A stretch of DNA of 64,000 nucleotides from Octopus vulgaris (taxonomy: Eukaryota): positions 35,464,001-35,528,000 of the forward strand of contig OX597822.1 in NCBI GenBank assembly GCA_951406725.2, in the 5' to 3' direction. A program made the position numbers and the translations under genes. Every line of letters starts with the position of its first letter. Position 1 is the first letter of the stretch. The notes below the pieces were generated by a model. It was not told the DNA's origin, made no database searches, and saw only the letters and a program-made list of their open reading frames with translations. This document shows positions 41-48,821 of this stretch, in pieces.

Positions 41-385
41 GTGTAAAGAGTTAGCGGTTACAATAACAGACTAAGGGATAAAATATACGTATATAACCCC
101 GGGCATTGGTGTGTAGGCACACTATACACGTAGAATGCAGATAGCAACAGGATAAACAAGAGTTTATCGGGAACAAATGCAAATAATCAGAAAATGGAGA
201 AAACCTCATCGATTGGACTGCATTTATAGTTTTTATTAATATAAAGTATGACATAACAAAATAGGTGACGTAACGTAATACGTCATCTATTTTGTTATAT
301 CATTCTTTGTATTATAAAATAAGCTATAAATGTGGTCCAACCAATGTGTTTGTTAATCTGAGATTTTCTCTATTTTCTGATTATA
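41..385. mobile_element. Small fold-back element: imperfect palindrome 183-384 plus unique extension 41-182, between (TA)n and (TG)n
   Basis: ataatcagaaaatggagaaaa...aaaataggtgacgta / tacgtcatctattttg...ttttctctattttctgattat, with a 6-nt central loop at 273-278. Confidence 0.55.
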
Positions 386-458
386 TATGTGTGTGTGTGT
401 GTGTGTGTGTGTGTGTGTGTGTGTGTGTGTGTGTGAGAGAGAGAGAGAGAGAGAGAGA

Positions 459-747
459 GGTGCAATGGCCCAGTGGTTAGGGCAGCGGTCATAGGATCGC
501 GGCTTCGATTCCCAGACCGGGCATTGTGAGTGTTTATTGAGCGAAAACACCTAAAGCTCCACGAGGCTCCAGCGGGAGGTCGTGGCGATCCCTGCTGTAC
601 TCTATTGCCACAACTTTCTCTCACTCTTTCTTCTGTTGGCCTGCTCGCTTAGCCAGCGGGGTGGCATCATTTGAAGGCTAAAGCAATGCAAAGTGCATTG
701 TGACCAGCGATGAATAACATCTGATAGCCTGGTCGGTCACGGTGATA
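459..747 (+). mobile_element. tRNA-derived SINE (family C head, tail type 1)
   Basis: A-box-like tggcccagtggttagg and B-box-like gcttcgattccc; head shared with 794, 28319 and 55625 copies. Confidence 0.8.
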
Positions 748-793
748 TATATATGTATGTGTGTGTGTGTGTGTGTGTGTGTGTGTGTGTGTG

Positions 794-1050
794 GAGGCGC
801 AATGGCCCAGTGGTTAGGGCAGCGGACTCGCGGTCGGAGGATCGCGGCTTCGATTCCCAGACCGGGCGTTGTGTGTGTTTATTGAGCGAAAACACCTAAA
901 AGCTCCAAGATGCTCCGGCAGGGGGGGGGGCGACCCCTGTTGTACTCTTTCGCCACAACTTCCTCTCCCTCTCTCTTCCTGTTTCTTGAGTAACGCTGGA
1001 GGGAACACAAACGCCACAGAAACCGGGAAACCGGGCCCATGAGACTGGCT
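794..1050 (+). mobile_element. tRNA-derived SINE (family C head, tail type 2)
   Basis: Same head; 3' part gaaaccgggaaaccgggcccatgag...ggctaggctt is shared with the SINE at 24879. Confidence 0.8.
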
Positions 1051-1468
1051 AGGCTTGAAAAGTGGGACGTTATATATATATATATATATATATATATATA
1101 TATATATATATATATAAAATATTAGGGAATAAATCCAAAAATACAGGGGAAAATCAGATTTAGGATTAAATCCAATTTTATAGTATAAATATATTATATT
1201 ATATTATATTAAATTAGAGATAAAACCACTATTAGGCAAATCAAACAATGAAAAACATAAGCCAATACATAAAATTAATTTAATTTATATTATTTTAAAT
1301 ATATATCAAAGGTATTAAAAGTTTAATAAAAGATAAAGAGTAAAAACTACGATCGTTTCATTACTAAACCACGCTAAGATAAGTATTTATATATATTTAA
1401 GATCTTCAAATATTGTATAAGTCTTTGGTGTAATAATATTTTCCTTATGTAAATATCGTTGTTTATGT

Positions 1469-45830: not shown

Positions 45831-46010
45831 TTTAATAAACACAATATATGTTTTGATGCGCTGAAATTAGTTTCATATGCTGAGAGCATGTTCTCAACAC
45901 GTGAAACTAATTGTAACACATAAAAACATTTACTGCGTTTATTAAAGGATATTTATCTTTCACCAGATGGAGTACATTTTTGTTGATCTAACCATCGCGG
46001 AACAGCGTAA
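45831..46010. mobile_element. Small fold-back element: palindrome 45831-45946 plus extension
   Basis: tttaataaac...aattagtttca..tgaga gcatgt tctca..tgaaactaatt...gtttattaaa, between TA and CA tracts. Confidence 0.55.
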
Positions 46011-47032
46011 TACGCACACACACACTCACATACACACACACACACACACACAGATATATATATGTCTCGAGCCTGTCTCGTCTTGTTACGTTTTGGTCCC
46101 ATTCCCGCAAAGTTTCTTTTCGGTGCCTCCAAAGCGAAAGCAATATTATCGATAATGGTCGAAATTGCGCTTGACCTGTGGCTGATAACTAACGAGGAGT
46201 TGGTGACCTTCTCTGCTTTCTAATCGTCTGTGTATTTAGTATATATTCGTATGTTTATTTACTACACCTTTTTAAATTATATATACATATATATATATAT
46301 ATTATATAGATAGATAGATAGATAGATAGATAGATAGATAGATAGATAGATACATACATACATACATACATACATACATACATACATACATACATATATT
46401 TATATAGACACACAGGTGTGTCTTTTTATTTAATCCTGAAAATATTACTTATGTAACGCAAGTACTCATTTACTTTTTATTCATTTTTTACCTATATATA
46501 TATATATATATATATATATATATATATATACATACGACGGGCTTCTTCCAGATTCTCTATACCATGTCCACTGACAAGCCTCTATTCGGGCCGAGGCAAT
46601 AGCAGAAGAGCAGAAGACACATGCTCAAAGTGCCACGCAATAGGATTGAACCGAGAACTACGTGTTTAGCAAGCAATTTCTTACTGCTCAGTCACTCCTA
46701 ACTTTTATCATTCATGCTATTTTCGCATTGTTATTTTCAATTTGTTTTTTACACTCACACACATGCATAGAGTTGTGTATGTGTGGGTGTGCGTATATGT
46801 GTACGTCATAAAACACCATGTGCGTTGTTGCGTGCGCGCGCGTGAGTGGGTGTTTGTGCGTGCACGTGTGTGTGTATGTACGTGTGTGTGTGTGTTTGTG
46901 TGTGTGCATTGAAACTACGTGGTGGCAAAACGGGAGCTTCTTAGTCATAGAGCCATGCCCATAATGATTTTATTTTTGTTTTGTAATTACTTTCTGGGAT
47001 GACCTCAATTTTAGTAACATTCTCTTTAGTAT

Positions 47033-47429
47033 AGACGCAGGAGTAGCTGTGTGGTAAGTAGCCTGCTTACCAACCACATGGTTCCGATTTCAGTCCCACT
47101 GCGTGGCACCTTGGGCAAGTGTCTTCTACTATAGCCTCGGGCCGACTAAAGCCTTGTGGAGGGATTTGATAGACGGAAACTGAAAGAAACCCGTTTTATA
47201 TATGTACATATATATATGTTTGTGTATCTGTGTTTGTCCCTCCAGCATCGCTTGACAACCGATGCTGGTGCATTTACGTCCCCGTAACTTAGTGGTTCGG
47301 CAAAAAGAAAGCGATAGAATAAGTACTAGGCTTACAAAGACTAAGTCCTGGGGTCGATTTGCTCGACTGAATGCGGTGCTCTAGCATGGCCACAGTCAAA
47401 TCACTGAAACAAGTAAAAGAGTAAAGAGT
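47033..47429 (+). mobile_element. SINE family A, full length
   Basis: Homologous to 6389-6800. Confidence 0.9.
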
Positions 47430-48592
47430 ATACATACATATATGTGCGTGTGTATTCATGTGTGTGTGTGTGTGTGTGTGTGTGTGTAAGCGCACATACA
47501 CCGGAATCCATATATTTTATTTCCATAACATAATTTATTCATTCACAAACATTTCCTAGTATTGATTATTTTGCTTTTTAGACTTGGCAGATTGATAATA
47601 GATATTATTTATGTTTCCTATTTTCCCATTTTTATTAAGTGTCATTGTTAGGAAAATGTATTTTCTTCCTGATATATCATATAAATATTGAGTTGGTGCC
47701 AGTCTGCTTGTCTTACCAAATTCTAATTCTTGAATATAATACATATTCTGCCAAAGTGTCTATAATAAGTCTAACAATTTGTTGAAATGCGAAAACGTAA
47801 AAGGAAAGATTTCTATCCTGCGAATAATTTTGTAAGATTTGTTACCAATTTTTATTTCCTATCGTTATTTCTCAAACATTATTTTTCAGATGTTCCTAAA
47901 TTTTGTTAGTTTATTTAGTATATACTGGCTTGTATGTGTTTTTTTTTTTTACCTTTTCTTCACCAGAATAGAAGAATAAAGGATTGGTTATTCCAGGAAC
48001 ACACATACGCGCGCGCACACACACACACACACACATACACATATATTTATATGTATGTATATATATATATATATATATATATATATATATATATATATAC
48101 ATATATATATACATATGTATATGCTTATATATATATACATATGTATATACATATATATATATACACGCACATATATATACATATATATACATACATATAT
48201 AATAAACATTTACATAAATAAATAACGTGAAATACACGAAGGGACGAACAAAAAGACAAACGGGTCATTCAAAGCCTTCGTTCTTCAGTCAGAAACCGAT
48301 TCCTCATCGCAGATTTCGGCTGTTTAATTCTGAGATCCGCTCTGAATCAGCCAGCCACAGAAGGAAAGAATGCAACGCAACAGAGATGAACATGAAACGA
48401 AAAAATCTTTTTTGGAGACAGTAATGGTTAAAAACATGGATGACACAGGCGCCCTACGGCTTTGAGACAAAAGGAGACACAAAAACAATATCAGCAAGCG
48501 TGACACACACATACACACACACACACACACACACACACACACACACACACACACACACACACACACACATATATATATATATATATATATAT

Positions 48593-48821
48593 TGTTCAAA
48601 ACGTATTGATTCGGGTTCCGTGTTACTTCAAGCTTCGAAGCCCCTAATAGAGCCTCTCCTCTCAGGCCGGAGAAAATCCGGATTTCCACCGGCCTTAGGA
48701 AAGAATTTGTTAGGGACTTCGAAACTTGAAGTAGCACGGAATCCGAATCAAACTGTTTTGAAGAAACATGTAACTCCCAATCAATGCGTTAACTGCCCTT
48801 TCTTTCGCTGGTCACCTTACT
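48593..48821. mobile_element. Small fold-back element: about 170-bp hairpin 48595-48762 plus extension
   Basis: ttgattcgggttccgtgttacttcaag / cttgaagtagcacggaatccgaatcaa; inner aggccgg/ccggcct; between (TA)n and (CA)n. Confidence 0.65.

Follow-up and report, generated by a model that had tools for sequence, protein, structure and literature searches.

We studied a stretch of 64,000 nt from Octopus vulgaris (GenBank assembly GCA_951406725.2, contig OX597822.1, positions 35,464,001 to 35,528,000 of the forward strand), in the following called the window, with positions counted from its first letter. It holds eleven elements, named E1 to E10 and E2b, most of which consist of two inverted arms with an extension on one side only. 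The largest one, E8, is a truncated Penelope-like element (PLE); the small hairpins, for the most part, are probably the same unit reduced to the 3' ends of several other PLE families. That is, the architecture is the known footprint of PLE integration, found here in a genome that harbours many TA-targeting families.

First, we examined the layout by local alignments and a self-comparison of the window. The original prediction described a recurring order of microsatellite, arm, and inverted arm with extension, which local alignment confirmed at the given places for ten hairpins (10/11 elements; Table 1). Their inverted arms measure 26-1467 bp with 79-100% identity, and self-BLAST E-values of the arms range from 9e-10 (E4) to 0. 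The extra 30-150 nt expected on one arm were measured as 28-148 nt. The exception to the layout is E2b (3301-3920), a partial tandem with an inverted piece of just 25 bp; no open reading frame (ORF) is seen in it and it is retrozyme-like. Together, the eleven elements span about 11 kb of the window, which is rich in microsatellites and repeats resembling short interspersed nuclear elements (SINEs). The elements had been said to share little or no sequence, and BLAST accordingly reports zero cross-matches between them at E<1e-3.

Next, we characterized E8. It is a 5'-truncated, endonuclease-bearing PLE in which the reverse transcriptase (RT) precedes a GIY-YIG nuclease within a single frame. 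This is what had been claimed for the largest element, and motifs, domain order and homologues bear it out. The linker between RT and nuclease reads CGRPNCKTC, and the GIY-YIG core contains an internal CxxC. The frame's match to RVT_1 is under the curated cut-off, and its homologues carry PF00078 and PF01541. Among the best 120 of 745 homologues, 114 show the zinc finger of the linker; the closest named ones are proteins of Octopus bimaculoides, with 84% over 61% of the query, and of Argonauta. JGI metagenomes, searched for relatives of this protein, gave 484 pattern matches, none of them confirmed. The N-terminal part of the frame is missing; the 3' end, copied in inverted orientation over 1467 bp, stands in its place. 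The 35-nt tail is positioned 3' of the frame. E8 thereby shows what marks a PLE insertion, i.e., an inverted 5'-truncated pseudo-long terminal repeat (pLTR) and a one-sided tail within 30-40 bp. Judged by its sequence, the linker points to Neptune or Nematis (PMC8557442); since Nematis also has the CX2-5CxxC pattern, the linker is not diagnostic of Neptune alone and does not separate the two clades. At 37417-37645 and 41949-42177, the pLTR arms additionally contain a 44-bp minisatellite of 5 copies as well as long CA/TG-rich tracts, directly upstream of the hammerhead half.

Hammerhead ribozyme motifs were located with a strict 3'-half pattern (GAAAC, palindromic loop, GTH). It matches 13 times in the window, and 10 of these matches fall into listed elements (E2, E2b, E5, E7, E8, E10). 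That is, 6/11 elements carry the motif, compared to a shuffle mean of 0.1 and a maximum of 2 in 1000 shuffles. All ten in-element motifs, two of which lie in one arm of E10, face from the centre outward. One of the three matches outside the elements marks another hairpin at 49869. Full or half hammerheads had originally been seen in five elements; the motifs as such stand, for six, while a complete canonical core with stem II is present only in E7, once per arm (19459-19523 on the minus, 20156-20220 on the plus strand), of type I and outward. In E2b, a full type I fold spans about 3687-3795, its core reading C-C-G instead of C-U-G. In E5, each arm has an outward 3' half. The same holds for E8 (37376 and 42218), for which the strict scan did not find the CUGANGA half. 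The E10 half is at 48721, and that of E9 appears solely in a relaxed, unspecific scan. Single-strand folds of the motif regions of E7, E8 and E2 are no more stable than shuffles, and that of E2b is more stable (z -2.3). No hammerhead family is among 150 of the 299 rows of an Rfam scan of the window; these rows are microRNA-type matches to microsatellites or hairpins, all under the gathering score. Most motifs here are halves or mutated, and ribozyme processing of the elements is thus putative; for the Anolis PLE, ribozyme cleavage was dispensable in vitro (PMC11167929). By its outward motif, a PLE origin is strongly indicated for E2, E2b, E5, E7 and E10.

We also investigated the flanks. A (TA)n tract with n of at least 4 lies within 8 nt of both ends for 7/11 elements, of one end for two (E1, E10) and of neither for two (E5, E9), which have decayed TA tracts nearby. 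The placement in or next to (TA)n, as initially described, therefore applies to 9/11 elements at one or both ends, with E5 and E9 only near decayed tracts. Such tracts cover 2.7% of positions as background and occur at 0/10 ends for five further hairpins of the window, but this enrichment is not an independent test, because the elements had been picked partly by their TA flank. Among the 47 long (TA)n tracts of the window, 18 adjoin a listed element or a related fragment. The flanks of E7 rejoin a common SINE-like repeat across the repeat's own internal (TA)n, with the host repeat intact on both sides; E7 thus had a pre-existing TA target. A CCCT or ATCC motif is located at most about 30 nt from the tail end of E1, E2, E3, E4, E6 and E2b.

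These data bear on the explanation that the palindromes arose by fold-back duplication of DNA at fragile (TA)n cruciforms, or as assembly artefacts, acting on adjacent repeats. The block at 12593-14776, with near-perfect inverted copies spanning several unrelated parts, fits such a process. It is nevertheless largely refuted by the fixed orientation relative to the hammerhead (10/10), and what is duplicated is element and not flank. The host repeat of E7 is intact on both sides. Most elements are not read chimeras, because their arms diverged by 2-21%. We consider this explanation extremely improbable.

To go beyond the window, we mapped E6, which has no motif within it, on contigs of four sequencing runs at 80% likeness. 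Between 2,236 and 3,737 contigs per run match (depth is not equal to copy number), and E6 is a member of a high-copy family. The depth of the tail is about equal to that of the outer arm in runs X1, X3 and X8 and lower in X2, and it falls sharply at the tail end. Since the tail is covered like the outer arm, it is family sequence; in this one case tested, the extension is not 'unique' as had been stated. At least 13 distinct left-to-right junctions are found among the rows listed (15 of 46; 12 of 26). They lie between 18064-18192 and 18205-18266 and, where stated, include 1-22 extra letters; four were seen in two runs. A check suggested along with the original prediction, i.e., variable inner junctions with a fixed outer end, thus holds for E6, the one small family tested. 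Furthermore, 16-32 contigs per listed row continue past 18197 or 18202 into family sequence, such that the loop is assigned to the tailed copy, with the window copy cut there. Continuation and window combined give, on the minus strand, GAAA followed by a self-complementary stretch of 9-10 bases and TA. Apparently, this is the 3' half of a hammerhead, with the tailed copy ending at about 18201 inside helix III; the 5' half would lie beyond the 30-letter continuation. Given its variable junctions and family tail, E6 is likely of PLE origin. For E9, a PLE origin is indicated more weakly.

A fixed-length miniature inverted-repeat transposable element (MITE) is refuted for E6 by the variable junctions, the family tail and the sequence beyond the loop. 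MITEs with symmetric terminal inverted repeats (TIRs) do not match the elements either, as all ten hairpins are asymmetric, besides the varying junctions of E6. For E1, E3 and E4, we also evaluated whether they are non-autonomous DNA elements favouring TA, i.e., MITEs or Helentron-type rolling-circle elements. Helentrons have an offset inverted repeat, and E4 has arms of just 26 bp, one terminal and one internal. The three elements show no hammerhead motif, MITE-like elements do occur in the window (11817-12222), and many TIR and Helitron families of Octopus vulgaris are unclassified (PMC13282606). However, E6, the sole motif-less hairpin tested, has variable junctions and sequence beyond its loop, and the symmetric hairpins of the window are without TA flanks. 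We therefore regard a DNA-element nature of these three as quite unlikely.

PLE integration likely yields such hairpins as follows. The GIY-YIG nuclease would nick both strands of a (TA)n tract, leaving two ends that would look alike because (TA)n is self-complementary. Each end may then prime reverse transcription of the element RNA from one of two start positions, where the distal start would give the tailed arm and the proximal start the tail-less arm. The proximal start often coincides with an internal TATA in target phase; the coincidence is measured, and the TATA may act in priming. Both copies would stop early at variable points, sometimes at hammerhead helix III or the cut site, and would presumably be joined in head-to-head orientation, a few bases being added at the junction. 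The hairpin would thus be a by-product of integration and not a terminal repeat for a transposase. Regarding the TATA, the TA phase common to the tail-less end and the tailed copy sums to 27 nt over nine elements vs. 10.4 expected (p about 0.001). The individual lengths are 3, 5, 0, 2, 3, 5, 6, 2 and 1 nt, and the three youngest elements have 5, 5 and 6. In E2, no more than about 2 nt separate the start of the tail-less copy from the predicted ribozyme cut site. Both observations are suggestive only.

The main rival to this scheme is that PLE complementary DNA (cDNA) made from the tail end snaps back at a palindrome (e.g., hammerhead helix III) to make the second arm, and the element's own nuclease trims the tail from that arm at an internal TATA before joining. 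Here, the TATA at the tail-less end needs no homology priming. The loop is part of the tailed copy in E8 and E6, and E6 is cut within the self-complementary stretch. Self-priming at palindromes was proposed in PMC3846280, and nuclease resolution was proposed for the tail in PMC8557442. Against this, contigs of X2 and X3 (one per run) join 18043, a tail position, with 18197 of the opposite strand. These are impossible from a short tailed strand unless both arms are tailed. Moreover, in PMC11167929 the tail is traced to two RT start sites, and both strands are extended. All in all, we find snap-back unlikely and prefer priming at two start sites.

Several observations weigh against a PLE origin of the small hairpins or against parts of the proposed scheme. 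The strict hammerhead motif was chosen after being seen in the elements, albeit matching the consensus described in PMC4209133, and the relaxed scan also yields 7 inward matches. In E1, E3 and E4, neither the strict nor the relaxed scan finds a hammerhead motif, and their layout is the sole link to PLEs. The initial suggestion that the small hairpins are PLE-derived is thus indicated for E2, E2b, E5, E7 and E10, likely for E6 and weaker for E9, and does not extend to E1, E3 and E4. No PLE frame linked to the small elements was found, neither by a profile of 120 E8 homologues on all six frames of the window (only E8 and a non-significant stretch near 59017) nor with one E2-body frame (stops read as X; 0 matches among 1.84 billion proteins). 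Only E6, i.e., 1/11 families, was mapped to reads, and on contigs only. Each of its junctions rests on one or few contigs and possibly reflects a later deletion. The TA-phase test is post hoc with n=9, where E3 is excluded for a gap in its anchor and E4 contributes 0. With regard to TATA priming, the Anolis PLE primed without target homology (PMC11167929). Finally, tails of 60-150 nt are longer than the 30-40 nt of published PLEs.

Table 1. Elements and related features in the window (percentages are arm identities unless noted; left and right as on the forward strand).
Feature	Position	Strand	Description
E1 hairpin	41..385	-	arms 183-267/284-384, 88%; 142-nt left extension
E2	1117..3260	-	arms about 1179-1348/3114-3260, 98-100%; left extension 62-86; left copy tailed, hammerhead 3' half 1348-1359; right copy 3114-3260 tail-less
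E2b	3301..3920	+	3326-3448 repeated from 3813; unit about 487 nt; 25-bp inverted 5' piece
E3 hairpin	4520..4815	-	arms 4641-4690/4769-4815, 94%; 121-nt left extension; between two (TA)n
E4	12997..13252	+	arms 12998-13023/13132-13157, 26 bp, 96%; 108-nt loop; 95-nt right extension
E2b-family fragment	14147..14236	-	90 nt, between two (TA)n
E5	14858..15182	-	arms 14886-14983/15083-15180, 98 bp, 92%; 28-nt left tail
E6	17990..18298	-	arms 18059-18134/18204-18298 (two blocks), 96%; 69-nt left tail
E7	19245..20286	-	arms 19393-19823/19844-20286, 431 bp, 98%; left tail about 145-148 nt
E2-family tail-less arm, older	35169..35430	-	76-78% identity
E8	37316..42313	+	arms 37316-38783/40804-42278, 1467 bp, 99.8%; 35-nt right tail
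E8 open frame	38762..40078	+	438 codons; RT motifs 4-5 (GTAMG, RYLDD), CX4CxxC linker, GIY-YIG core
E9	45826..46012	+	arms within 45831-45946, 79%, old hairpin; 66-nt right extension
E10	48591..48824	+	arms within 48592-48765, 85 bp, 85%; 59-nt right tail
Additional candidate, outside the original set	49869..50114	+	69-bp arms; ~90-nt right extension ending at (TAGA)n

The additional candidate at 49869-50114 has GA-rich and (TAGA)n flanks instead of (TA)n, together with an outward hammerhead 3' half (49929). The body of E2 is AT-rich and contains a nested SINE pair at 1469-2209, i.e., two tRNA-like copies head to head (343 bp, 97.7%) with tails outward and a 48-nt spacer, bounded by one 11-base direct repeat. 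The pair looks like a single two-ended insertion, with the SINE label given by appearance. E4 has an identical inverted copy at 14268-14523. It is part of the near-perfect inverted duplication at 12593-14776 (215/220 and 288/288), which copies E4 and its neighbour. The duplication is without a 102-nt repeat fragment found between two TA tracts, and is either a very recent event or an assembly artefact. A possible element of similar layout, without hammerhead motif, is located at 12593-13400 (84% arms, 12716-12797/13316-13395; ~120-nt left extension), where the right arm ends in a short TA run and E4 is inserted at the centre. When searching sequencing runs with E7, no run labelled RNA was among the matches listed; seven guessed-RNA runs show small shares.

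Other repeats of the window differ in form. The two MITE-like elements at 11817-12222 and about 54277-54967 have symmetric 30-bp terminal repeats, an 8-base flank repeat (7/8) and internal telomere-like TTAGGG or CCCTAA runs, and are not beside TA. The hairpins at 10798-10979 and 61296-61481 are symmetric (88% and 98% arms), with neither TA flank nor hammerhead motif. At 30235-30465 on the minus strand, a frame between two (TG)n tracts resembles a PLE thumb by eye; neither a homologue search nor the E8-family profile on the window found a homologue for it.

When cephalopod genomes are annotated, a lopsided hairpin with TA flanks should be examined as a potential PLE stub before it is labelled a MITE. 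Thousands of young long-tailed copies could separate twin priming from snap-back as the origin of the PLE tail and of the inverted copy. They would allow scoring the relative length of the two arms, the position of junctions with respect to the ribozyme, and any need for target homology at the tail-less end. A far wider picture is conceivable, in which many non-autonomous octopus PLE families with thousands of copies each integrate by twin priming at (TA)n, with a distal start 30-150 nt out and internal TATA pairing. Hammerhead-cut RNA 5' ends would fix some junctions, and the hairpins, misfiled as MITEs, would supply a sizeable local share of the double-stranded RNA for cephalopod adenosine-to-inosine (A-to-I) editing. 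We consider this picture rather doubtful.

Much of what we observe has precedents. The inverted pLTR, the one-sided tail, the hammerheads and the (TA)n bias are already published, including TA-targeting PLEs in Octopus. PLE insertions with an inverted 5'-truncated copy, a tail of 30-40 bp on one side and a preference for (TA)n were described by Craig et al. 2021 (PMC8557442). For Neptune, the CX2-5CxxC linker was proposed to mediate the microsatellite bias. The supplement of Craig et al. lists three Octopus families with (TA)n preference, Naiad_Obim, Naiad_Ovul and Hydra-1_Obim, the last with a palindromic helix III in its hammerhead. Six short motifs (from E2, E4, E5, E6, E7 and E8) were not found in the text of this supplement, whose line breaks and cuts weaken the search. 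Hammerheads on opposite strands at distances of 100-700 bp were reported by Cervera and de la Pena, who ascribe most dispersed motifs to truncated PLEs (PMC4209133). In vitro, the Anolis PLE nicks AT-rich DNA on both strands, extends both and starts RT at two internal sites, with the tail being the stretch between them (PMC11167929). A 2026 Octopus vulgaris annotation gives 31 recently active PLE families, and 'palindrome' and 'hairpin' are absent from its main text (PMC13282606). Literature searches on Penelope microhomology or twin priming, MITE misclassification and octopus hammerheads yielded no paper on these hairpins, with subscription papers and Repbase/Dfam largely outside their scope. 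What our data add are tails of up to about 150 nt and, post hoc, tail-less ends at an internal TATA in target phase.

Finally, we compared the elements with known systems. E8 shares with Neptune and Nematis an RT ahead of a C-terminal GIY-YIG as well as a CX2-5CxxC linker, but is without the N-terminal part of the frame. Naiad, with its nuclease first, fits neither the RT motifs nor the domain order of E8, and the RT motifs given for Hydra-1_Obim differ as well. E2b resembles metazoan non-LTR (long terminal repeat) retrozymes (PMC7229834; bioRxiv 10.64898/2026.07.22.740005) in that it is rich in AT, is arranged head to tail with a unit of ~487 nt, has a type I hammerhead and shows no ORF. It differs from tandem short units each with a type I hammerhead in having a single one with changed core and only a partial second unit, and falls short of a non-LTR retrozyme in this respect; the remaining elements have a head-to-head instead of a tandem arrangement. 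With MITEs, the small elements share being short, hairpin-forming, of high copy and beside TA, whereas their asymmetric ends, the strand-specific ribozyme motif and, for E6, the variable inner junction and the family sequence beyond the loop set them apart. The closest match is the PLE unit of the Pen2a_Av type (PMC3846280, PMC8557442), which has the same inverted 5'-truncated head-to-head copy, one-ended tail, hammerhead near the 3' end, junction palindromes, and microsatellite targets that mask the target duplication. The elements differ from it by tails of 28-148 vs. 30-40 nt, by a size of 180-350 bp for most units, and by the many unrelated families within 64 kb.

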